Origin: Geotalea daltonii FRC-32
GTDB lineage: Bacteria; Desulfobacterota; Desulfuromonadia; Geobacterales; Geobacteraceae
Assembly (NCBI RefSeq): GCF_000022265.1
Contig: NC_011979.1
Span: 3,330,001 to 3,362,000 of the forward strand
Direction of reading: 5' to 3'
DNA: 32,000 bases
Part shown: piece by piece, positions 536 to 29,680 of the stretch
Position numbering within the stretch: position 1 is the first letter of the stretch
Layout of the letters: every line of letters starts with the position of its first letter
Notes under the pieces: generated by a model
Databases searched by the model: none
The model's input: only the letters and a program-made list of their open reading frames with translations
Told to the model about the DNA's origin: nothing
Made by a program: the position numbers and the translations under genes

Positions 536-880
536 TTAGCCGGGAGGCCAGTTGAACTGCCTCCCACCGAGAAGGTGAAAGTGAATGTGAAATACCGACT
601 GACCCGCTCCGGCATTATTGTTGTTGACGACACGGAAACCGTCCTCAGCAATGCCTCTTTCGCGGGCGATGGCTGCAGCGACCCGAAACACATGTCCTAT
701 CAGGGCTTCGTCCTCCGGTTGAAGGTCAAGGGTATTGGCCACATGCTTTTTAGGGATGACAAGCAGATGTTGCGGCGCAACCGGAGCAATGTCCTGGATC
801 ACCAAAAGCTGGTCGTCCTCGAAGACCGGCTTGACTGGGATTTCGCCTTTAATCATCCTGCAGAAGAGACAATCCGTCAT
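536..880 (-). CDS. HIT (histidine triad) family nucleotide hydrolase
   Basis: The track ORF is 536..913. I prefer ATG 880..878 (MTDCLFCRMIKGEIP...) because GGGAGGGGG (885..893, minus) sits 4 nt upstream. The histidine-triad motif HIHFHLLGG is near the C-terminus. Confidence 0.9.
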   Translation of the reverse strand: MTDCLFCRMIKGEIPVKPVFEDDQLLVIQDIAPVAPQHLLVIPKKHVANTLDLQPEDEALIGHVFRVAAAIARERGIAEDGFRVVNNNNAGAGQSVFHIHFHLLGGRQFNWPPG

Positions 881-16821: not shown

Positions 16822-16855
16822 AAAAAAGAACGCCCACCCGGAACGGATAGGCGTC
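16822..16855 (-). terminator. Hairpin + U-tract ending the xre-pilMNOPQ-lipoprotein transcription unit
   Basis: Minus-strand RNA forms GACGCC-UAU-CCG-UUC-CGG-GUG-GGCGUU followed by CUUUUUUAAAA. It lies 50 nt after the stop of the 1044-aa gene and only about 28 nt before the aroC ATG. The stem is interrupted, so strength is uncertain. Confidence 0.5.
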
Positions 16856-16905: not shown

Positions 16906-19900
16906 TTAAATCAAATCGGTACTTTTTCTTTTATATAATATAGTGCCAGCAAACATAGCAGCTAAACTAAGTAAAAGTGCATAGTACTTAACAGCAAAAA
17001 TAAGGGGCGTAAGAGCCAAACGGGTTATGACTCTTAACATTTCATGCTCAGCAATAAAATCAGCAATCGGCGGACTTGTAGCATAATAGAACTTTACGAA
17101 GGCTTTACCAAGAGCATTTTTAAGAAGGATGTTATCCCGGAAATTTCTCAGCACTACAACGTGAGGGTCAAGATAGCTGCCATAGGCTGCCGTTGCGATA
17201 AAGCACCCGCTTTTGCCACCTGAAGGCGGTGGATTGCTGTCTAATGAACCAGTCCCTGTTCCGGTACCTGTTCCGGTACCTGTTCCTGGATCTGTTCCAG
17301 CTCCAGGTTGTGTAGAACCAGTCCCCGCAACATTAATCGAGGTTGAAAGAGACTTGTCTGTACTTATAGTGAGAGTTTGACCGGGATCTGGACCCGATGC
17401 AGAGGGTGAATATTTGATAGTTATGATCTGTTGACTGCCTGGCGCCATCGCAATGGGAAATGTGAGATTTTCGACTATCGAGAATGGTGCAGTTAAACCC
17501 GTAATAGAGGTGATATTGTAAGAGACTGAGCTGTTGTTGCCAAGGGTCAAGGTCAAGTCCTTCGTTTTGCCGACTTCAAGTATCTGAAAATCGAGGGTGC
17601 CGTTATTCGTACCATCATTTTCCTGCACTGTCATTGTGGGTGGAATGCCAATTCCGGAAAGATTGACGGTTCTGTCGCCTGCATCACTTCTGATAACGAA
17701 GTTACCGGTGAAGGTGCCGCCCGCAGTTGGGGCAAACTTGACAGTAAGTGTAGTTTCAACTGATGAGGCAAGGGTCAACACACTTGCATCAGTACAACTG
17801 CTTAATTCAGCAGGGATATTTTCAATACTGAACGGCGAACCGGGTAACGGCTCAATACAGTTGATGGTAAGAGGAATATCTCCAGTATTTTTTATTTTGA
17901 ATGTTTGTCTGCCTGTCTGGTTGGCGGTGACTTGGTTAAAATCAATTAGAGCAGGAGCCAGTGAGACATTAGTTTCGCTGAGGAGAGTCAGCTGGGGCTG
18001 GCCCAAAGAGAACCTTTGTGCATGGATATCTGCAGCATTAGTGTTAACTGCTGGCAAGGTCTGTTGTGTGCGCGCATCCTTCCACATGGCAAGGAATTGC
18101 CTGCCACTTGCGTCATTGGCGGAATTGTAAGCGATTACTGGCGAAAGCTGACTGCCGGGCGCAGTAGAGATGGAATAATTAGTTCCGCGTAAAGTTCCTT
18201 CCGTGTCAATATATTGACCGAAAATATCGAGATTCTCTGAAGACTGGGAACCATTACGGCCATCCTGCCATATCACAAAATACCTTTGCAGTACAGAATC
18301 ATAGGTAATATAAGGACGAGTCTGCCTTGTAGCGGCAACATTCGTATCTTGTGAACCATTTGCATCTGTGTCCTGGTAACTGATTATTGAGTTGATGTTA
18401 TAGAGGCCACCGCCTGATGATACGAGCTGTCCATAAATTTTGGTATTGGAACCGTCCCTTAAATCCTCCCAAACAACTAAAAATCTTTTGTTTGGTTGAT
18501 CAAAACCGATAGCTGGGTAGTTGGCATTCGAGGTGTTTGAGCCGTCAAATCGCATAGATTGGATGTTGGTTTGTTTGACGTTTTTGTCAAAAATTCCGTA
18601 GATGTGCTGCAATCCATCATCATAGGCAGACACCGTGGCTTTGGCAGTCACCGGCTCTCCTACGTCACAGCCTTTACTGTTGTTGAGGTCATCGCAGCTG
18701 CATACAACTTCAAGCTTTTGCCTGTTCCCTTCCCAAGCCAGCAACGTTTCTGAGGAAGTTGTGTCCGATGCGGCCACCACATTGTTAATATTAGTGAAAA
18801 ACTCGTAGGTATAACTGTCCGTCAGGGCAGCGGGAGCGTGAGCAATAAGCCTGTTGGAACGGGTAGCCTTATCCCTAACAATGTCGGCGCCTACCGGATT
18901 TCCAGAGCCATTCGAGAGACCGGTTGGCATTTCAGCAAGAGTGGCCTCATTCAGCATCACATAACCGGTAAAATTCGTGTCGCCAGTTGTATAATCGGTC
19001 TTGGCAAAACCGAAACAGGACTCTGAGATAAGGCTTTTTACATCCCTCGACTCAGTCCAGACGATCCAGAACCTTTGCCGGGTGCCGTCGTAGGTAATTT
19101 TTGGCGACTTCCGCGACAATAGCCGGTCACCCACGGTTGCGGTACTGGGAGTAACAGAGAACGTTTTATATATGTAGGATACCGTGACCTGCTGATTCAA
19201 TGCGGGAGGCACATCAAAAAGAATGGATAAGCTGCCAATATTGTAATTTATTGTGCCAGATCCCCCCGTGCCTGATATGCCACCGTTTCCGATGGTGTCA
19301 TTCAAGATAATACCGCCAGCTTTAACAATAACAGTTGTCGGTTTGACAGGTCTGTTCAAGCTTCCGGTAAAAGATTGTGATGTACCGTTACCAATGGCAA
19401 CAAGTGAGTCAGTGACAGCAAGTTCAGTAGTCACAATTGTAGGACTTTCCTCTAGTAAGCTGCTGTATCCAATTGCAGTACCCAAACTCGGCGCAGGGGG
19501 GGTATAGCCGCAGGTACCAGCCGTCGGGAATGATGTGATGGGGGCAACATAGACATATCCCCCTTCACCCTCATCGACAAAACCATTGCCGTTAAGGTCG
19601 CTAACCCTGGTATCCTGCCATGTGATAACAATCTTATCTTGAGTCAGTGAATAGGCGGCGGTTGGAACCGTCTGATTGCCTGGGGCATTGATCACAGGAA
19701 AAACAGGGCCGCACAGCGTGCCATCGGGGTTAATAAACTGTGCATATATATCCGTGCCGGTAGTATTCCTGTTACGCCAGTCCTCCCATACGGAGAAGTA
19801 GATATTCTTTCCTTCAAGGTAGATTACCTGAGGGTTCTGCTGATCGTCTGCAGCGTTGGAGACAATAATTTCACTCCCCTCAAGTTTCGCCAGCTTTTTC

Positions 19901-20040
19901 CCGGTAGCAGATATCTTTTCTGAGCCGATGACACCCTGTGCATTTTTTCCATTGTCGGCACCACAGCCGAAGATCAAACTAAAGCTGGTTAATATCAACA
20001 ATTTCACTAACAATCTATGCAAAGACATTCTCTCCTCCAT
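16906..20040 (-). CDS. Giant predicted surface lipoprotein: lipobox, ~7 W-x-[DE]-x-R repeats (propeller-like), two Ig-like domains, (GT)n linker, [11 protein letters not shown]-terminal domain with TM helix
   Basis: 1044-aa ORF. The signal peptide ends in the lipobox LIFG-C (Cys26). An alternative start is ATG 20028 with GGAGG 5 nt upstream. The repeat core is [FL]-[VI]-[VI]-W-x-D-x-R...DI[YF][GA]Q. Residues about 695-905 resemble ASH / choice-of-anchor-D type beta-sandwiches ([23 protein letters not shown]; [20 protein letters not shown]). The tail runs from Cys946: [28 protein letters not shown]...[12 protein letters not shown]..., then a hydrophobic helix and KRKSTDLI. Confidence 0.85.
17251..17305 (-). 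repeat. Short tandem repeat (about 12-nt unit GGTACCTGTTCC and variants) encoding the (Gly-Thr)n linker
   Basis: The plus strand reads agtccctgttccggtacctgttccggtacctgttcctggatctgttccagctcc. This translates on the minus strand to [20 protein letters not shown]. Confidence 0.7.
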
Positions 20041-20067
20041 AATTAGCTCACCAGACCTGATCCTATG

Positions 20068-20655
20068 TTATTGTGCTGACGTTTCGGCCCTGTCAGCAAA
20101 GGCTACGCTCATATTGGTAGAGAATTCCTGACGTGTACCAGTGCCACCGATTTCGACACCACTGAAAGTAATAGTCACATAATACTCATAAAGTGTACCG
20201 GAACAAGGCTGCAAATTATAGTCGGAAACGAGCTTGGACTTCAGAATTTCCGGGGCCACCGGCACAGGTATTAATGCAGTACCAGAGGTTATAACGATAC
20301 CGACTGGATAAGGTTGGGCGAGGATGGCAGGAGACACTGCATTCTTAGGCGTATAACTTACAGTAACAGTATCTATTCGGACAGGTAAAGGCGACATTGT
20401 CAGATTACGGTACGGGGTTGCAGCCACGTCAACATCTACGGAGTCGGTTTCGTATGCTCCGCCGGAGGTGGCACTGGTGGGACAGGTATTTCCTGTAATC
20501 ACATCGGATTCGAGCCTGACCGTTTGTGGTTGGGCTGTCATGGTAACGGTAGTAAATTCACCAGCCCCTCCGCCGGCATTCTGACTGCCGCATGACGACA
20601 GAAGAAAAAGAAAGCTTAAAAATACAACAGACTGAATACCCATACATCTAAACAT
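20068..20655 (-). CDS. Uncharacterised small lipoprotein (195 aa) directly downstream of pilQ
   Basis: The signal peptide ends in the lipobox LLSS-C (MFRCMGIQSVVFLSFLFLLSSCGSQ). GGGGGAG lies just upstream of ATG 20655, which is 10 nt after the pilQ stop. The mature part is Thr/Val/Pro-rich and looks beta-rich, with two further Cys. I recognise no family. Confidence 0.75.
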   Translation of the reverse strand: MFRCMGIQSVVFLSFLFLLSSCGSQNAGGGAGEFTTVTMTAQPQTVRLESDVITGNTCPTSATSGGAYETDSVDVDVAATPYRNLTMSPLPVRIDTVTVSYTPKNAVSPAILAQPYPVGIVITSGTALIPVPVAPEILKSKLVSDYNLQPCSGTLYEYYVTITFSGVEIGGTGTRQEFSTNMSVAFADRAETSAQ

Positions 20656-20665
20656 GCACTCCCCC

Positions 20666-23401
20666 TTAACTCACAATTTTAGGTGTTATGAAAATCAACA
20701 GCTCATTCTTTGATTTGTTTTTGGTGTTAGACTTGAAAAGCCACCCAAGCAATGGGATGTCCTGCAAGAAAGGAACTCCTTTGTCGCTTTCGGTGTCGCT
20801 GTCTACGTAAATGCCACCGATTACAGTCGTCTCACCATTTTTAATAAGAAGTTCTGTGGTTGCCTCTTTTTTGTTGATAGGAGGAGGAGAACCGGTGCCG
20901 GCAGAGTTATTGGATGCCTTGATCTTCATACCGATACTTCCATCAGAGGTGATATGGGGCGTGACCTCCAAAGTCAAAGCCGCTTCAACAAACTCAGTCT
21001 TAGTCCCTTCAGCAGAGGTTGTCTGATATGGAATAGATGCACCCTGCGAGATCTTTGCCGGTTTGTTGTTGAGCGTCACCACCCGCGGTGTGGACATTAT
21101 CTTGATCTGATCGGCAGTAACAGCGGCAGAAAGACGCATGTCAAGCTGAATATTGCTGGCAAGCTTACCGAATGACATGCCAACGGCAGCTCCTGGCCCA
21201 GAGGTACCTGAAGTGGGGGCTATTGCAACCTGTCCGCCAAAACCTGTATCAAGCCGGCTGATACCGGCAACAGATGCAGACCCGTCTATGTAATGAATTC
21301 CCCATTGCACCCCCAGATCTCGGACAAACGAAGTGCTTGCCTCGACAATCCGGGCCTCGATCATGACTTGCTTTTCCGGCGTATCAAGGCTTTTTAGAAG
21401 CATTCTCATGTCTTCAATTGCAGTTGTGATGTCCTTGACGATTACACGGTTGGTGCGTGCATCGGTACTTATGATACCACGATCACTTTTAAGAGTTCCG
21501 AACTGTGTTGCGATATCGGTGACAGCTGCGTAATTGACATCAAAAATCTCCGTACGCAACTCCATCCCTCTTTCACGGGCTTTCTTGGTAGCCATTTCCT
21601 CGTCAGCCTGGGATTGCATTTTTGCCTTTGGCTTGATTTGGACGATATTCCCTTCTTTCAACATACCCAAACCCTTAGTATCAAGAATTACGTCCAGAGC
21701 CTGATCCCATGGCACGTTAACAAGCTTGATACTGATGGTCCCTGTAACATCGTCAGCTATAAGGAAATTAAGGTTACTTACTTCTGCAATAAGCTGGAAG
21801 ATTTTACGTATATCAGCATCGGAAAACTCAAGGGTAACTTTTCTGCCTGAATATACCTTTTTCGGTTGTTGTTTTGAAACGACAGATTTTGGAAGTTCAC
21901 TAGTATCTGACTCTTTTGATGGTGATGCCAGCAATTCATCCTCTATTTTGGAAGAGATAGGAGCTGCCTTTTCCTTAACTTGACCGGATACCACTGCAGG
22001 AATAACTGGATTCTTCACTTCAAAGAGGTATAAATTCCCTTCTTTTCGATCAGAAAACGGGCTCTTGTTCCGGAGTTTTACCAGAATTCTGGCACTGGTA
22101 CCGCCTGCTACCTTTACCTGATAAGGTGTTACATTAAGAACCGAGCTGGCAAAGGCCTTGGTATCAAGAGTCCTTTGAAGTTTCTTGGGTAGTTCACAAT
22201 TTTTTAAGCTGAGGAGTATTCCTTTCGATGTTTCAGCCGGTTTGTCAATACTGCACACGCCAGCGGTCTTGATCTCTATTCTGGAAAATCCATCAACAAG
22301 TTTAAAATCAATGGATTCAATCGAACCTTTTTCAACATTGCCTGCTTTCTTGTTTCCAGAGCTTGATTTTAAAGTATCCGGTTCGACCGCTTGTGGCTTG
22401 GCTACAGTTTCTGCCCCTGATTGGGAAAACGATATGCTCAGCCCGGCAGCGGACTTTTCGATCCGGTAAGGCTCAATTTTTTCTTTCACTGAGTCAAAGA
22501 CAATCCGTACTTTTCCAGGAGAGATACCAATCCGGGCCTTTGCAATACCGAAGCGGTCTACGGGAATGGAGTTAGATTTTATAGAATTATTGATCTCGAA
22601 GAGGTCGACCACCAAGCGTCCAGGCTTATCCAGCTTAAAGGAAGTAAAAGTAGCCGGACCACCGGCAATTGACAATTCGATTTTATCATTCAGTACCTTA
22701 ATATCGCCAAGTGTCTTTGGTGCTCCTGATTCATTTTTATCATCGGCTGTAGCAGTGAATGAACTCTCTTTAGCCATCTTGTTATTTTCTGTGTCTGAAA
22801 CCCTGGGAGCAGTAGAGCCATTAACAATATCGTCCGGAGCAGCACCTGGTTCAGATTTTACGCCAACTTTTGCATTAGCATAATCATCGGCCGTTGTGTT
22901 TTTGGGCTCAGTCTTAGCTGACTGATCTTCTACCATTCTAGCTGTTTGTTCTTGAAGCTGCTTTGGTGTTAGGACAACATTAAGCTTTCCTTTGTCATTT
23001 GTATCTGTTTTGACAGAAAAATCGGTATCGGCTTTCAGATCTATTTCAACTCTGCTGAGGAAACCGCTGCCGAAATCCTGTCGCGTTACATTTATCCCTT
23101 TAATGTTTCCATTATCCGATACCAGTGGTTTTGTCTGCCCTGGTTCCGTTTGAGCTAGATCAATAAAAATCTTTGGGGGTTCACTTGTCTTGTAAGAGGT
23201 ATAGGTTAATGGTTTATTAGTTCGGATCTCGGCCATTGTGCCATTGTTTTTAATCTTTATTTCTTGAATCACAGCAAAAGAGTTTGTTTCAAGTAAGTCA
23301 GCATCTTGTGCTGCAACCATCTTCTTAGCACAGCCGGATACAGCCATTAAAAAAATAAGTATCAGGGTATGGCAAATGATTCTGAGTGAATTCATTTTCA
23401 T
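20666..23401 (-). CDS. pilQ: Type IV pilus secretin PilQ (three AMIN-like modules + N0/N1 + secretin core)
   Basis: 911 aa. The N0 region is KVTLEFSDADIRKIFQLIAEVSNLNFLIADDV. The C-terminal secretin block is GETTVIGGIY...KGVPFLQDIPLLGWLFK...ELLIFITPKIV. The start overlaps the pilP stop (ATGA). Confidence 0.95.
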   Translation of the reverse strand: MKMNSLRIICHTLILIFLMAVSGCAKKMVAAQDADLLETNSFAVIQEIKIKNNGTMAEIRTNKPLTYTSYKTSEPPKIFIDLAQTEPGQTKPLVSDNGNIKGINVTRQDFGSGFLSRVEIDLKADTDFSVKTDTNDKGKLNVVLTPKQLQEQTARMVEDQSAKTEPKNTTADDYANAKVGVKSEPGAAPDDIVNGSTAPRVSDTENNKMAKESSFTATADDKNESGAPKTLGDIKVLNDKIELSIAGGPATFTSFKLDKPGRLVVDLFEINNSIKSNSIPVDRFGIAKARIGISPGKVRIVFDSVKEKIEPYRIEKSAAGLSISFSQSGAETVAKPQAVEPDTLKSSSGNKKAGNVEKGSIESIDFKLVDGFSRIEIKTAGVCSIDKPAETSKGILLSLKNCELPKKLQRTLDTKAFASSVLNVTPYQVKVAGGTSARILVKLRNKSPFSDRKEGNLYLFEVKNPVIPAVVSGQVKEKAAPISSKIEDELLASPSKESDTSELPKSVVSKQQPKKVYSGRKVTLEFSDADIRKIFQLIAEVSNLNFLIADDVTGTISIKLVNVPWDQALDVILDTKGLGMLKEGNIVQIKPKAKMQSQADEEMATKKARERGMELRTEIFDVNYAAVTDIATQFGTLKSDRGIISTDARTNRVIVKDITTAIEDMRMLLKSLDTPEKQVMIEARIVEASTSFVRDLGVQWGIHYIDGSASVAGISRLDTGFGGQVAIAPTSGTSGPGAAVGMSFGKLASNIQLDMRLSAAVTADQIKIMSTPRVVTLNNKPAKISQGASIPYQTTSAEGTKTEFVEAALTLEVTPHITSDGSIGMKIKASNNSAGTGSPPPINKKEATTELLIKNGETTVIGGIYVDSDTESDKGVPFLQDIPLLGWLFKSNTKNKSKNELLIFITPKIVS

Positions 23402-23982
23402 CTGGAAATCTCCTTACTCTTCTTGGCCAATGGCAGAACTATTTTTCTGTTCTTTATACGTTTTTTCCCATCTAGATATTGTTCAGTCACTTCCAGGGAG
23501 GAGGCGGTTATTCTGGTGATGCGACCACCATTATCTCCGATCAACATACCGGTTTTAACAACATACCCCTTGCCTGTCGGGTCAATCAATAGGGCTTTAT
23601 TTTCTTTAAGCCCGGTAATGATGCCTGTAACGATAAACTTGCTGACCTCGTGGCTCTGTATGGGGAGGGCATCAACAATCCTGGTCCTGGTAGGCACAGG
23701 TGCTTTCACCGCAGCAGCCTCAGGAGCAGTAATCAAGGGTTTGAAGGGGTCTTTTTTGCTTTTGAAGACAAAGGCGCCTGTTGCTTGCCCCCCCACTTGT
23801 GATGTAGAAACGGATTTCTGCACAGCAGCACTTGGTTTCACCTGTGCTGTGGGCTGGGGCAGAGCCGGAGCCTGAGGATTAGGCTTTGGTGCCTCATCAT
23901 TCTTTTTGCATCCGCAGACAAGACAGGCGGTCATAAGACAAAAAGCCAAAACTAGAGACTGTTTATTTAGCCTTTTTTTCAT
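23398..23982 (-). CDS. pilP: Pilus assembly protein PilP
   Basis: 194 aa with a signal/lipoprotein-like N-terminus and a Pro/Ala-rich linker. The C-terminal beta-domain is FIVTGIITGLKENKALLIDPTGKGYVVKTGMLIGDNGGRITRITASSLEV. It sits between pilO and pilQ. Confidence 0.82.
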   Translation of the reverse strand: MKKRLNKQSLVLAFCLMTACLVCGCKKNDEAPKPNPQAPALPQPTAQVKPSAAVQKSVSTSQVGGQATGAFVFKSKKDPFKPLITAPEAAAVKAPVPTRTRIVDALPIQSHEVSKFIVTGIITGLKENKALLIDPTGKGYVVKTGMLIGDNGGRITRITASSLEVTEQYLDGKKRIKNRKIVLPLAKKSKEISR

Positions 23983-24562
23983 CCTTTATCTCTTTCTTGT
24001 CAAGGAAACGGAATGTTGTCGCCAGACAATTTACTTTGATAGTGGTCAAACCTTTACCTGTTTTAATTTCTGTAAAATTAACATTGGAGATATTTACAAT
24101 GCGAGGAAGCGCAGATACTGCCTGGAAGAAACTACCGATCTGATAAAAAGTTCCTGACACTGATATATCTACAGGAACCGCAGCATAGAAATCTTTGGGC
24201 TCCTCAGGTTTGGGTTTGAAAAGAAGGAACTCCAGTCCAGCACTTTTACCAGCATTTGCAATGCTTGTCAGAAGAGAGGGAATTTCCTTCTGATTAGGTA
24301 ACTCTGTCAACGCCAGTTTCAATTCGTTCTGTAATTGCTCATATTCCTGCTTGTATTTGGGAAGATTATTGGCTAGTTTCTGTGCCTCGGAAGCCTGTCT
24401 GCTTAAATCCTCAAGTTGAGTCTGCAGAGTCTTAAATTCTTTAAGCTTTGGTTGATAAAGGCCGAAAAAGAACCCGGCACCAAGTAAGCCTATAATGAGG
24501 AATAGCAGCCCAAGCTTTTGTTTGGCAGGAAGCTTTAATATCTTTTCAAACTGTGGGTTCAT
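23963..24562 (-). CDS. pilO: Pilus assembly protein PilO
   Basis: 199 aa with a single TM segment (KLGLLFLIIGLLGAGFFFGLY), a coiled coil, then a ferredoxin-like domain. It sits in the canonical operon position. Confidence 0.85.
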   Translation of the reverse strand: MNPQFEKILKLPAKQKLGLLFLIIGLLGAGFFFGLYQPKLKEFKTLQTQLEDLSRQASEAQKLANNLPKYKQEYEQLQNELKLALTELPNQKEIPSLLTSIANAGKSAGLEFLLFKPKPEEPKDFYAAVPVDISVSGTFYQIGSFFQAVSALPRIVNISNVNFTEIKTGKGLTTIKVNCLATTFRFLDKKEIKDEKKAK

Positions 24563-24598
24563 GAAAGCCCTCGGAAAGGACGCGAGCCGGCCCTTTAT

Positions 24599-25171
24599 TT
24601 ATTTTATCTTTTTATCTGGTTCGGGAGGGGCAAAGGCTGCAAGCTTTAATGTTATATCAAATCTCTTAGCTTTGGTTTTGGCTATTTCCGTTTGTTCCGA
24701 AACCTGGAGCTCCACATTGGTAAAATCAGGTATTGCCTGCAGGTTTTTCATAAGAGCTGCGATATCATCTTCACTGAAAGCAGCCCCAGAAAGTGATATT
24801 GTACCTGCAGATTCACTGTACTTGGTAAGCCATAGCTTATCAGGCACAGCATCACTAAGCATGGCAAGCCTGCTCACAGGACCTGTTTTTTCCTTTCGCA
24901 AACGGTTCAGAATGTCCAACTTCTTCTTTACTTCAGCTTGAAGCTTTTTGATATTGTCTATTTCACCAATCTTAGTCTTCAGCTGCTGGATTTCCTGTTC
25001 GGTTCTAGAGATTTCATCCTTTGCATGCGAAATCTTGGAAATAACCAGCGAGTACAGAACTGCACATACAGCCAGAGTACCTACTACAGTAATTACCAGT
25101 ATGGAAATCTGCTGTCTGGTCGTTTCCTTCTTCTTGGCTGCTCTAACCGGTAATAAATTAATTTTTATCAT
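24599..25171 (-). CDS. pilN: Pilus assembly protein PilN
   Basis: 190 aa with the conserved N-terminus MIKINLLPVR, which binds PilM, followed by a TM segment and a coiled coil. It overlaps pilM by 4 nt. Confidence 0.87.
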   Translation of the reverse strand: MIKINLLPVRAAKKKETTRQQISILVITVVGTLAVCAVLYSLVISKISHAKDEISRTEQEIQQLKTKIGEIDNIKKLQAEVKKKLDILNRLRKEKTGPVSRLAMLSDAVPDKLWLTKYSESAGTISLSGAAFSEDDIAALMKNLQAIPDFTNVELQVSEQTEIAKTKAKRFDITLKLAAFAPPEPDKKIK

Positions 25172-26220
25172 TTATCCCCAAGCCTCCTTGTCGCCAGTCC
25201 TATAGCAACAGTTACAAGAGGACCTATTTCTCTCAGGTATTCAGGATCAAATTCTTTTTGATCATACCTTACCTTCGAAAAGGGATTAAGTATTTCTACT
25301 GGTATACCCAGTTTCTGACTGACTGTTTCTGGTAACGAAGCAGATTTTGCTCCACCACCACTAAGATAAACCTTACTTATTTTGCCTTCTCCGGCAGTGG
25401 AATTATAGAAGTCAAGGGATCGTCGCATTTCAACGGCAAGTGTGTCATTTGCACGAGCCAAAACGTCTTTCAGTCTGCCATCATCAGCATCTGATTTAGC
25501 GATCTTCATTCTCTCTGCGTCTTCATTGTTAACACCAAATTGCTTTTGTATTTCCTCGTTAAACAGGGAACTACCGAGTTGAACATCGCGGGTAAACAGA
25601 GAAATTCCGTCCTTGACAATATTCATGTTCATGACGCTGGCACCTATGTTGACTAAAGCATTAACCTCTTCTGGGCTAACATCGTAGTTAAGCTCAAATG
25701 CGTTCTGAACAGCAAACGAGTCAACATCAACAACTGTAAGTCTCATGCCTGCTTCAGTGAAAACGGCCAGATAATCATTAATGATATCCTTTTTGCTAGC
25801 CACTAGAAGCACATTCATTTTGGAAGAATCAATATCATCTGGGGCAATGATCTGAAAATCTATATTAACATCGTTGATATCAAAAGGAATATATTGTTCT
25901 GCTTCCCAATGTATTTGTTCCTCAAGTTCTTCAGCAGGCATAACTGGTAAAGATATTTTTCTTATGATTACTGAGTTCCCGGAAATGGAACACGCCGCTT
26001 CTTTTGAAGTTATTTTCAGACTATCTATAAGAGTTTTGATTCCTTCAACTATTGAAGAACTGTCCATGAGAGTATTATCTACAATGGCCTCGGCGGGCAG
26101 TGGAATCAGCCCAACATTCTGCAACTGAAAGCTTCCTTTCTGCACCTTAAGCTGTACCAGCTTTATAGAACTGGATCCGATATCTACGCCAACAATATCC
26201 TTCTTTTTGGTAAAAAACAT
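25168..26220 (-). CDS. pilM: Actin-like ATPase-fold pilus assembly protein PilM
   Basis: 350 aa with the motifs VGVDIGSSSIKLVQL, IVDVDSFA-like (VVDVDSFAVQNAF) and YLSGGGAK. Confidence 0.95.
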   Translation of the reverse strand: MFFTKKKDIVGVDIGSSSIKLVQLKVQKGSFQLQNVGLIPLPAEAIVDNTLMDSSSIVEGIKTLIDSLKITSKEAACSISGNSVIIRKISLPVMPAEELEEQIHWEAEQYIPFDINDVNIDFQIIAPDDIDSSKMNVLLVASKKDIINDYLAVFTEAGMRLTVVDVDSFAVQNAFELNYDVSPEEVNALVNIGASVMNMNIVKDGISLFTRDVQLGSSLFNEEIQKQFGVNNEDAERMKIAKSDADDGRLKDVLARANDTLAVEMRRSLDFYNSTAGEGKISKVYLSGGGAKSASLPETVSQKLGIPVEILNPFSKVRYDQKEFDPEYLREIGPLVTVAIGLATRRLGDK

Positions 26221-26239: not shown

Positions 26240-26440
26240 TTATTCTTGAAATACTTTATCTTTGTCCGATAGTGAAAATCCGAGTGCCAATATTATTTTT
26301 CTCTTGGTTTCCATACGACATTCTTCCCCACGCTCTATACGATCTATGGTAACAGGAGAAACGCCGGCCAATCTCGCTAGCTCAGCTTTGCTCATCAATC
26401 GCTGTTCACGTATTTTCCTGACACAGTTCTTTACTCGCAT
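26240..26440 (-). CDS. Small XRE-family helix-turn-helix protein, first cistron of the pilM operon
   Basis: 66 aa. The HTH_3 pattern is IREQRLMSKAELARLAGVSPVTIDRIERGE. It ends 19 nt before the pilM start. Confidence 0.8.
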   Translation of the reverse strand: MRVKNCVRKIREQRLMSKAELARLAGVSPVTIDRIERGEECRMETKRKIILALGFSLSDKDKVFQE

Positions 26441-26473: not shown

Positions 26474-26501
26474 AAAATAACACAAAAGAAAGTAGAGTCA
26501 A
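26474..26501 (-). promoter_or_regulatory. Weak sigma70-like promoter candidate downstream of the riboswitch terminator
   Basis: On the minus strand, TTGACT (26501..26496), a 16-nt spacer, then TATTTT (26479..26474). It lies about 30 nt upstream of the xre ATG. This is a pattern match in AT-rich DNA only. Confidence 0.25.
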
Positions 26502-26571
26502 GAAATTAATCTCTTTTCTATAAAAATAAATACAATTATATATAATTATGTCATTTGACTACTTTTGACGC

Positions 26572-26613
26572 AAAAAAACCGGATCGCCTATTCATGATAT
26601 TTCGGCAACCCGG
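26572..26613 (-). terminator. Intrinsic terminator (riboswitch expression platform)
   Basis: Minus-strand RNA forms CCGGGUUGCC (26613..26604), a 15-nt loop, then GGCGAUCCGG (26588..26579). That is 10 bp including two G.U, followed by UUUUUUU (26578..26572). The 5' arm is also the conserved 3' box of the aptamer. Confidence 0.75.
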
Positions 26614-26680
26614 CTGTCTGCTTGAGACCCTATAGGCTTTCCGCCCCATTCTCGCGAATGGTTTAGTATTATCGTTATCG
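26598..26680 (-). promoter_or_regulatory. GEMM-I class (c-di-GMP-I / 3',3'-cGAMP) riboswitch aptamer
   Basis: The minus-strand RNA is CGAUAACGAUAAUACUAAACCAUUCGCGAGAAUGGGGCGGAAAGCCUAUAGGGUCUCAAGCAGACAGCCGGGUUGCCGAAAU. Aligned by hand to the Vc2 aptamer as I remember it, it shares four elements. These are AAACC plus a hairpin CCAUUC-GCGA(GNRA)-GAAUGG, the G-C-x-x-AAAGCC junction, a second hairpin, and the GCCGGGUUGCCG box (Vc2: GCGGGGUUACCG). Confidence 0.65.
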
Positions 26681-26712
26681 TTATGTCAAATCTATACCTT
26701 ATCTACACCATT

Positions 26713-26728
26713 TGCAGACAGTGTGCCA
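26713..26728 (-). promoter_or_regulatory. Sigma54 (RpoN) -24/-12 promoter candidate
   Basis: The minus strand reads TGGCACactgtCTGCA against the consensus TGGCACG-N4-TTGCA. The GG and GC have canonical spacing. The predicted TSS near 26702 lies about 35 nt upstream of the aptamer core. Confidence 0.55.
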
Positions 26729-26859
26729 AAGGGCCCATTCACCTTAAGAATAACGCCATATCCTAGGATTATATTAAACTTAGCGCTCAATTGCATAAAG
26801 TTCATGAATGCCTGATGGAAGCATCGTATAATATTGATAATCATTATTGCAACTAAACA

Positions 26860-27498
26860 CTAGTAAGCATAAAGGACCGAGAGGCGAGCACGTTCCTTTG
26901 CATTGCTCTCGGCCTCACTTTCCACCTCGATACGATATATATAAGGAAGATGTGGTACCCCTATCAGCGAACCACCTGGGTTGTACGCCACTCCGATCGG
27001 ATCGATAAGCTTTTCTCCATTTTCAGCACCTCCGCTGGATGTATCAGTATTGCCAGCAGTAGTGTCGACTATCTTGGAATTAACGACAAAACCGGGCATG
27101 GACGGCATCCCTTTCAAATGGAAGGTGACATCTGGGGACACTTTGGCATTAGGGTCCGAGTTCGATGTGATGCAATTCGTCCATTCCGATGTGGAGAACC
27201 TCAATTTCTGTTGCAGGCAAGCGTTGGTTACTGGGACATCAAGATTAATTCCGCTAAATTCTGACATAAGTCTATTTGTAGAGTATCCGCCAAAAATTTT
27301 AGGAATGATATCTTTAGCAAATACCTGAACGCCGCCATGTGCAGCTTCTAGAGATGTTTTGTACCTTTTGTTGGCAGCGGATATGTAGGTCCCTTGAGTT
27401 ATGTAATATAGAAGAGTTAGACATATGACCAGGGAAATCAGCGTCAGCATAAGAGCTGTCACTAGGGCCACACCATTTTCATTTCTAAGACACCTCAT
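26860..27498 (-). CDS. pilX: PilX-like minor pilin (PilX_N type, no Glu5)
   Basis: 212 aa. The N-terminus MRCLRNENGVALVTALMLTLISLVICLTLL matches the G-[AV]-x-L-[IV]-x-A-L hydrophobic PilX N-domain pattern. AGGTGG lies upstream. It is the last gene of the minor-pilin operon. Confidence 0.72.
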   Translation of the reverse strand: MRCLRNENGVALVTALMLTLISLVICLTLLYYITQGTYISAANKRYKTSLEAAHGGVQVFAKDIIPKIFGGYSTNRLMSEFSGINLDVPVTNACLQQKLRFSTSEWTNCITSNSDPNAKVSPDVTFHLKGMPSMPGFVVNSKIVDTTAGNTDTSSGGAENGEKLIDPIGVAYNPGGSLIGVPHLPYIYRIEVESEAESNAKERARLSVLYAY

Positions 27499-28809: not shown

Positions 28810-29220
28810 TTACTTGGATTTAATGGACACAACCTGATGATGGAAAGAGGATATATTCTTAAATTTCCATCTTATATCGACAATCAACTGCTTCGAGTCC
28901 CCAGTCAGGTTTGAAACGATCTGTTTGACCGCATAGGTACTACTAAAACCAGGTCTCCTGCTGGAGACTTGGGTGGTTTTCTCTGCGCTGGTAAGCATGG
29001 CAAAAGGCTTTGCTTTCATGGCATGCATGGTGACTTCCCCTATTTCCACAGCCTCGTCCCGCATCTGATTCCGCAGGTTGTGTTCGGTAGCGAGGATCAC
29101 TGTCTGCAACAGCCCAAGAAGACCGACTGTCATAATCAAAATGCTGACCATAACCTCAATAAGGGTAAACCCCGAATTATCTGGTTTTGATATCGTCTGC
29201 AACACAAGCACCTCCTTCAT
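28810..29220 (-). CDS. pilV: PilV-like minor pilin
   Basis: Prepilin motif ...SKPDNSG/FTLIEVMVSILIMTVGLLGL. The start is ambiguous: ATG 29220, or GTG 29205 / TTG 29202, which lie 5-8 nt after AAGGAGG. The track start at 29289 is unlikely. The gene overlaps the fimT 3' end. Confidence 0.78.
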   Translation of the reverse strand: MKEVLVLQTISKPDNSGFTLIEVMVSILIMTVGLLGLLQTVILATEHNLRNQMRDEAVEIGEVTMHAMKAKPFAMLTSAEKTTQVSSRRPGFSSTYAVKQIVSNLTGDSKQLIVDIRWKFKNISSFHHQVVSIKSK

Positions 29221-29680
29221 CCCGCTTACCCAGTTGAATCCGGGCTGCCGACAGTACAATGCTGTCAAGGGCTGCGGGATTACCGCCATCTAAAATGCAG
29301 ATGCTCCTCCCACCTAATCCAGGATTAGATAATAAACCATAGGAATCGAAATTTAATTGCCCGGAGGAGCCATTCCAGATCATGGAATACTTAAAATCTT
29401 TCTTAAAAAGGGGAGGTACAGAAACATTGCTGGAGGAATAAACAGAATAAGCCGAGGAGCTTATGATCACCGAGCGGGGTTGCCTAGTGAACATGGCTTG
29501 CGACCTCACAGTCATTATATCTCCATGAAGCATGCGGACCTGGCTCTCAATAGATGATTTCCTGGAGTAATGGGTGAACTGCAATGTGGCAATGGATAGC
29601 AAAACTCCGGCAATAGCCATGACTATGAGCAATTCAATAAGGGAAAATCCATGGCTTCGCATCTTAGTGCTCCTGAACAT
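29177..29680 (-). CDS. fimT: FimT/FimU (GspH-like) minor pilin
   Basis: Prepilin motif MRSHG/FSLIELLIVMAIAGVLLSIA followed by the GspH-type segment SIESQVRMLHGDIMTVRSQAM. An alternative and perhaps better start is ATG 29662, with AGGAG 8 nt upstream and 1 nt after the pilY1 stop. Confidence 0.8.
   Translation of the reverse strand: MFRSTKMRSHGFSLIELLIVMAIAGVLLSIATLQFTHYSRKSSIESQVRMLHGDIMTVRSQAMFTRQPRSVIISSSAYSVYSSSNVSVPPLFKKDFKYSMIWNGSSGQLNFDSYGLLSNPGLGGRSICILDGGNPAALDSIVLSAARIQLGKRDEGGACVADDIKTR

Follow-up and report, generated by a model that had tools for sequence, protein, structure and literature searches.

The riboswitch upstream of xre-pilMNOPQ in Geotalea daltonii is a counterpart of the Geobacter pilM cGAMP riboswitch

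Results

Gene organisation of the locus

The window analysed here, a stretch of 32 000 nucleotides from Geotalea daltonii FRC-32 with a GC content of ∼47%, carries genes for type IV pilus assembly on its minus strand. Read in the direction of transcription, and with assignments taken from Pfam, these specify a PilY1-domain protein, three N-methyl minor pilin-like proteins and a 212-aa protein (26860..27498), which are followed by a gap, by xre and by pilMNOPQ. The product of xre (26440..26240, minus strand) is a 66-aa HTH_3 regulator (PF01381, E = 7.7e-10). The genes pilM, pilN, pilO, pilP and pilQ (26220..20666, minus strand) encode the alignment complex and the secretin of the type IV pilus, and matched PilM_2, PilN, PilO, PilP and Secretin/AMIN/STN; the xre-pilMNOPQ context proposed in an earlier sequence-only reading of this DNA was thus found in Pfam terms as well. 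Past pilQ, and before aroC and aroB, lie two genes on the same strand (20655..16906) for proteins of 195 and 1044 aa (ASH/Ig-like domains). That reading had taken them for lipoproteins, and both contain a lipobox (LLSSC and IFGC, respectively); the gaps preceding these genes are of 10 and 27 nt. From xre to the gene for the 1044-aa protein the intergenic gaps range from –20 to +36 nt, and a terminator scan placed an intrinsic terminator with a 12-bp stem followed by CTTTTTT at 16855..16829 (minus strand), before aroC. The genes from xre to that of the 1044-aa lipoprotein form one operon.

The 212-aa protein, which had been named PilX, gave no match in Pfam, and the name reflects only the position of its gene. 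Further upstream, two of the minor-pilin open reading frames (ORFs; 28810..29289 and 29177..29680, minus strand) overlap by 113 nt as listed. The N-methyl motif of the 159-aa ORF is located at residues 38–61, so that the real start is probably ∼30 codons downstream.

The gap separating the gene for the 212-aa protein from xre spans 419 nt on the minus strand and had been described as devoid of any credible ORF. It does contain one ORF of at least 50 aa (26692..26844), although this was rejected as a gene since the stretch is not conserved even among the closest relatives. By PilM identity, the closest among species representatives are Geotalea sp. SG265 (89%) and Geotalea toluenoxydans (85%).

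A complete GEMM-I aptamer in the gap upstream of xre

When the whole 32-kb window was compared by cmscan with all 4227 families of Rfam 15, a single match exceeded a gathering score. It corresponds to RF01051 (c-di-GMP-I / GEMM-I), extends from 26677 to 26601 on the minus strand, covers model positions 1–87 of 87 and has an E value of 1.1e-6, which is far beyond chance. Its score of 48.3 bits compares with a gathering score of 35 for this family. A GEMM-I-class cyclic-dinucleotide riboswitch ahead of xre-pilMNOPQ had been suggested from an alignment by eye, together with the proposal that RF01051 be searched for, and this full-model match bears the suggestion out.

All four aptamer elements on which the suggestion was built are present, on the minus strand and where they had been placed. 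The first is AAACC followed by CCAUUC-GCGA-GAAUGG (26661..26646), the second the junction GGCGGAAAGCC, the third the hairpin GGGUCU-CAAGC-AGAC and the fourth the 3′ box GCCGGGUUGCCGAAAU. The RF01051 match, a gap-free alignment with the pilM riboswitch and pair counts in 24 sequences (see below) delimit the complete aptamer, including P1, to 26679..26596 (minus strand). According to the alignment with the pilM riboswitch of Geobacter metallireducens and to the Rfam consensus structure, P1 is formed by GAUAACG (26679..26673) and CG..AUAUC (26604..26596), and a 2-bp helix, CU/GG, flanks an AAA bulge. The first hairpin (26661..26646), defined by the Rfam structure and by covariation, is a 6-bp stem (CCAUUC/GAAUGG) capped by the GNRA tetraloop GCGA. 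It is joined by the junction GGCGGAAAG to a second helix, AGCC..GGGUCU / AGAC..CC.GGUU (26638..26607), taken from the Rfam consensus structure and from pair counts in orthologues. The element therefore displays the features of the GEMM-I class, namely a score not below the curated gathering score and two hairpins, the first with a GNRA tetraloop, connected by a ACGCAAAGC-type junction (here GGCGGAAAGCC). As regards the tertiary docking of this tetraloop into a receptor of the second helix, what the sequence displays is the GNRA loop.

A terminator scan also reported a terminator-like hairpin on the plus strand, at 26646..26661. This is the first hairpin of the aptamer in reverse complement, and it was discarded as a separate feature; the same artefact was seen in two other loci (L013 and L074). 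The 5′ edge of the aptamer contains one copy of a direct repeat, TGACATAA(C/T)(G/T)ATA (26676..26688), the other copy of which lies just past the riboswitch terminator (26541..26553). This repeat may be due to chance in AT-rich DNA.

Conservation of the aptamer among Geobacteraceae

To place the element among its relatives, the PilM of the window was searched against one genome per species, which rendered 80 pilM loci of Geobacteraceae. In 77 of them xre immediately precedes pilM. RF01051 was detected at its gathering threshold in 24 of the 80 loci, and in 23 of these its distance from the downstream pilM is 380–580 nt, which is also the case in the window. In the alignment of the 24 aptamers the mean column identity is 88%. 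The structure described above is paired in 86.8% of the cases, a value that falls to 32–54% when the 3′ partner is slid by 1–3 columns. Double-sided changes affect five pairs, two of which belong to the first hairpin (UA/UG/CG and CG/UA). Among the orthologues, the first hairpin is paired in 100% of the cells and the second helix in 87–96%. The counts for P1 are depressed because the register of its distal part shifts by one nucleotide between lineages; when inspected by eye, distal pairing is kept (GAUA/UAUC, GGUA/UAUC, GAUU/GGUC).

The binding pocket carries the GEMM-Ib signature

The subclass of the riboswitch was assigned from the nucleotides expected to contact the ligand, using the definition of GEMM-Ib in PMC6140456, according to which riboswitches for cGAMP have an A in place of G20. 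In the window, the position equivalent to G20 of the Vibrio cholerae Vc2 riboswitch and to A14 of Gs1761 (Rfam model position 11, a G in the model) is occupied by A26667, immediately 5′ of the CU/GG helix. The first A of the GGAAAGCC junction, A26640, is equivalent to Vc2 A47 and Gs1761 A41, while C26605, which falls on position 75 of the pilM riboswitch sequence as published, is equivalent to C75 of both the G. metallireducens pilM riboswitch and Gs1761, and to C92 of Vc2 (all minus strand). The columns equivalent to A20, A47 and C92 (Vc2 numbering) are invariant in the 24 orthologues. The element thus has the A typical of GEMM-Ib, and retains the ligand-contacting A47 and C92 equivalents of GEMM-I. 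In characterised members, the A at position 20 forms a pair with the cGAMP adenine (PMC6140456; PMC5888326), the A47/A41 equivalent stacks between the two ligand bases (PMC5888326) and C75 of the pilM riboswitch pairs with the ligand guanine (PMC9262584).

The pilM riboswitch of G. metallireducens was used as reference, with the sequence given in the supplement of PMC9262584. From the first to the last nucleotide of P1, 72 of 84 positions (86%) are identical to those of the window aptamer, and the alignment is gap-free except for one loop column. The 12 differing positions include a G for A in the GGC junction. The A20 signature, which is invariant, and the 86% identity to a riboswitch whose binding of cGAMP has been measured indicate that the ligand of the window copy is most likely 3′,3′-cGAMP rather than c-di-GMP. 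The Gmet_0970 riboswitch is also informative. Gm0970 binds cGAMP with an affinity of ∼16 nM and a selectivity of ∼1600-fold (PMC8835794), and the A20G change in the Gmet_0970 riboswitch shifts selectivity from cGAMP to c-di-GMP (PMC6456294). It is plausible that the Gm0970 aptamer and the pilM riboswitch are the same RNA; a full-text sequence search gave no match for it, and the locus tag does not occur in the pilM paper (PMC9262584).

The matched family bears the name c-di-GMP-I, and protonation of the adenine enables A20-type riboswitches to bind c-di-GMP as well, several natural GEMM-Ib members being bispecific (PMC6140456). Selectivity of the window copy for cGAMP should therefore be taken as probable rather than assured. 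If the element were a classical sensor of c-di-GMP, or were truly bispecific, expression of the pilus platform would track c-di-GMP instead of cGAMP. Such a sensor is nevertheless improbable here, given that the A at the G20 position is found in 24 of 24 orthologues, that the 86%-identical pilM riboswitch of G. metallireducens has been described as cGAMP-sensing (PMC9262584), that the Gmet_0970 riboswitch needs the A20G substitution to become selective for c-di-GMP, and that expression of the Geobacter sulfurreducens counterpart drops when the cGAMP synthase is deleted (PMC6456294).

An intrinsic terminator shares a strand with the aptamer

Minimum free energy (MFE) folds revealed an intrinsic terminator at 26615..26572 (minus strand), with a stem of 11–12 bp and a tract of seven U residues. 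Its 5′ arm, (A)GCCGGGUUGCC (26615..26604), is the 3′ strand of the aptamer and includes C26605 and the proximal P1 pair. The loop is of 15 nt and unstructured; the 3′ arm is GGCGAUCCGGU(U) (26588..26577), and the U7 tract spans 26578..26572. Because of the shared strand, with C26605 and the proximal P1 pair in it, the aptamer and the terminator are mutually exclusive. The terminator conformer was computed at –34.8 kcal/mol, compared with –13.6 kcal/mol for the secondary structure of the aptamer, and the full-length MFE fold places the aptamer 3′ strand into the terminator hairpin. By these folding calculations, termination is the predicted default when ligand is absent. Since the terminator re-uses the 3′ strand of the aptamer, binding of the ligand should prevent termination, which would make the element an ON switch. 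This is how the pilM riboswitch has been reported to behave: cGAMP blocks formation of a terminator that sequesters C75 (PMC9262584).

A terminator re-using the aptamer 3′ strand is found in 25 of 25 sequences, that is, in the 24 orthologues and in G. metallireducens, and its 3′ arm covaries with the strand it pairs with: GGGUUGCC occurs with GGCGAUCC, GGCAGCCC or GGCGGCCC, GGGUCGCC with GGCGACCC, and GGGAUGCC with GGCAUCCC. In many orthologues (L021, L026, L060, L074 and others) the terminator loop contains an inner hairpin, in which the P1 3′ strand AUAUC pairs with a downstream GAUAU.

The riboswitch is present in a minority of related loci

The riboswitch has a patchy distribution. It is present in Geotalea, Geomobilimonas luticola, Geobacter sp. 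AOG1, Pelotalea chapellei and several metagenome-assembled genomes (MAGs), and absent from all Geomonas, from Citrifermentans bremense, Oryzomonas japonica and G. argillaceus, and from a closely related MAG (L005). A relaxed pattern search for degenerate riboswitches in the loci negative in Rfam found none. On a PilM neighbour-joining tree, which is weakly resolved, the distribution requires at least 17 gains or losses. In another MAG (L075) the riboswitch (795..871) lies ∼1.4 kb upstream of xre, compared with ∼150–300 nt elsewhere; something appears to have been inserted between the two.

Absence of the riboswitch from 56 of the 80 loci, among them that of the close relative L005, means that the operon works without it, and might raise the suspicion that the window copy is a decayed or chance match devoid of a regulatory role. 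This is hardly credible: the match covers the full model with E = 1.1e-6, no ligand-contacting position has been lost, the terminator with its U7 tract is intact, and compensatory changes have accumulated both in the aptamer helices and in the terminator. The window riboswitch is real, and it is an ordinary counterpart of an element already known, the characterised cGAMP ON switch of Geobacter pilM. As far as can be judged from sequence, it presents every feature that would be sought in an RF01051 member, in the GEMM-Ib subclass and in a terminator-based ON switch.

A conserved promoter-like element downstream of the terminator

A promoter scan identified a putative sigma-70-like promoter, named P2, with the sequence TTGACT-16 nt-TGnTATTTT (26501..26474, minus strand). 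It is located past the riboswitch terminator, with 33 nt separating the end of its –10 element from the ATG of xre. Close relatives, among them the riboswitch-free L005, have the same element in alignment with P2. More generally, 76 of 78 loci, those free of riboswitch included, have TTGAC at a distance of 58–71 nt ahead of the ATG of xre, followed by a –10 of the TAAAT type. In the riboswitch-free loci the gap upstream of xre is just 150–280 nt. The simplest reading is that the P2-like element would be the operon's own promoter. The riboswitch would then govern extra transcription arriving from upstream, with cGAMP probably adding read-through rather than acting as the sole gate.

The simple model offered by the sequence-only reading was that the riboswitch places the operon under direct second-messenger control. 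The riboswitch part of that claim stands; sole control is improbable in view of a conserved promoter-like element downstream of the terminator, and control by cGAMP is likely to be partial. For the riboswitch to be the only gate, TTGACT..TATTTT would have to be no promoter at all, with all transcription passing through the aptamer. It is true that the riboswitch occupies the only long gap upstream of xre, and a match to a promoter consensus is no proof of function, since the scan gave 2 sites in the region when 2.3 were expected. The position of TTGAC, with its TAAAT-like –10, is however kept in 76 of 78 loci; the 50-plus loci without riboswitch must start xre-pilM transcription within a gap of 150–280 nt; and the published effect of cGAMP loss on the G. 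sulfurreducens operon is a 2–3-fold decrease, compared with 10–16-fold for other riboswitch-controlled genes (PMC6456294). Control through the riboswitch alone is therefore unlikely. If P2 is the operon's own promoter, as seems simplest, this would explain why the effect of cGAMP in G. sulfurreducens is as weak as 2–3-fold when it reaches 10–16-fold elsewhere; a conserved P2 could make the contribution of the riboswitch small.

As to where incoming transcription would originate, the promoter scan of the window found no consensus promoter ahead of the aptamer, and this upstream region is not conserved among relatives. By eye, some relatives show a promoter of the TTGACT-N17-TATAAG type 30–60 nt upstream of P1; in L074 the scan omitted it because its –10 lacks the final T. 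No terminator was seen between the gene for the 212-aa protein and the aptamer, so read-through from the minor-pilin genes would be possible.

Between the terminator and P2 lies an imperfect 22-bp palindrome composed of ACATAATTATA and TATAATTGTAT (26551..26530, minus strand), a candidate operator. Palindromes resembling (T)GCATAATTATGCA occur ∼10 nt upstream of the conserved –35 in many of the loci compared (L004–L083), and a loose core pattern was found in 45 of 76. The Xre regulator encoded next to it could use the palindrome as its operator. Taken together with the distribution of the riboswitch, these observations allow a broader, tentative proposal, to which we give rather less than even odds: the riboswitch might not be a classical 5′-leader but a removable, conditional read-through cassette, lost and gained many times in Geobacteraceae, that is placed upstream of the operon's own promoter and of a palindromic operator. 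It would add cGAMP-dependent transcription from upstream, started at a dedicated promoter or coming in from the minor-pilin/pilY1 genes, to promoter-driven transcription that is possibly autoregulated by Xre.

Discussion

The element upstream of xre is very probably a GEMM-Ib riboswitch, selective for 3′,3′-cGAMP, that corresponds to the pilM riboswitch and switches transcription ON. The operon is probably also transcribed independently of it, so that cGAMP would raise expression from a level above zero. The events envisaged are as follows. RNA polymerase would enter from upstream and transcribe the aptamer (26679..26596). If cGAMP is bound during a short co-transcriptional window, the 3′ strand GCCGGGUUGCCG would be kept within the aptamer, with A26667 reading the adenine of cGAMP, C26605 pairing with its guanine and A26640 stacking between both bases. 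When no cGAMP is bound, that strand would pair with GGCGAUCCGGU, generating the 11–12 bp terminator followed by U7, and transcription would stop at about 26572. The read-through RNA would continue into xre, pilMNOPQ and the two lipoprotein genes, and end at the terminator at 16855..16829.

With this copy, a further genome joins those of metal-reducing Geobacteraceae whose type IV pilus assembly is connected to cGAMP signalling. Experiments in G. sulfurreducens and G. metallireducens had already established the link between cGAMP and the pilus, and standard Rfam annotation would find the window copy. For those who use this riboswitch as a model, two points may be of interest: a conserved P2 could account for the weak, 2–3-fold effect observed in vivo, and the cassette is present in only ∼30% of the related species.

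The connection between GEMM-I riboswitches and pilus genes of Geobacter, to which the sequence-only reading had pointed, is real, and concerns pilMNOP of G. sulfurreducens and pilM of G. metallireducens. The closest characterised system is the latter, a cGAMP-binding ON switch studied by NMR and ITC (PMC9262584, Landgraf et al. 2022, NAR). The two riboswitches share their location ahead of a pilus operon, P1 (GAUAxCG / CG..AUAUC), the GCGA tetraloop, the A at the selectivity position, C75, a terminator that re-uses the GCCGGGNUGCCG strand, and the ON logic. They differ in 12 substitutions, mostly compensated in helices, and in the host, which in the case of the window is a Geotalea with a GC content of ∼47%. 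The terminators differ as well: in that of G. metallireducens the stem is bulged and an inner hairpin pairs AUCAC with GUGAU, while that of the window has a stem of 11–12 bp and an unstructured 15-nt loop. When compared by arrangement alone, the GEMM-Ib riboswitch of G. sulfurreducens is similar, with a riboswitch, a small regulator and pilMNOP in the same order (PMC6456294, Hallberg et al. 2019, eLife); the in vivo dependence of that operon on the cGAMP synthase GacA is 2–3-fold, and GEMM-Ib riboswitches upstream of pilus-assembly genes have been stated to be conserved in most Geobacter species (PMC6456294). Gs1761 (pgcA; structures 4YAZ and 4YB0), judged by its published descriptions, belongs to the same GEMM-Ib subclass and has the same pocket logic (A14/A41/C75), although it controls a cytochrome gene. 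Vc2 of V. cholerae is more distant: it shares the Rfam family RF01051 and the fold, but it has a G at position 20, binds c-di-GMP and bears a GAAA tetraloop where the window copy has GCGA. Moreover, Vc2 has been described as a translational riboswitch (PMC9262584), whereas the window copy is predicted from its folds to work through a terminator.
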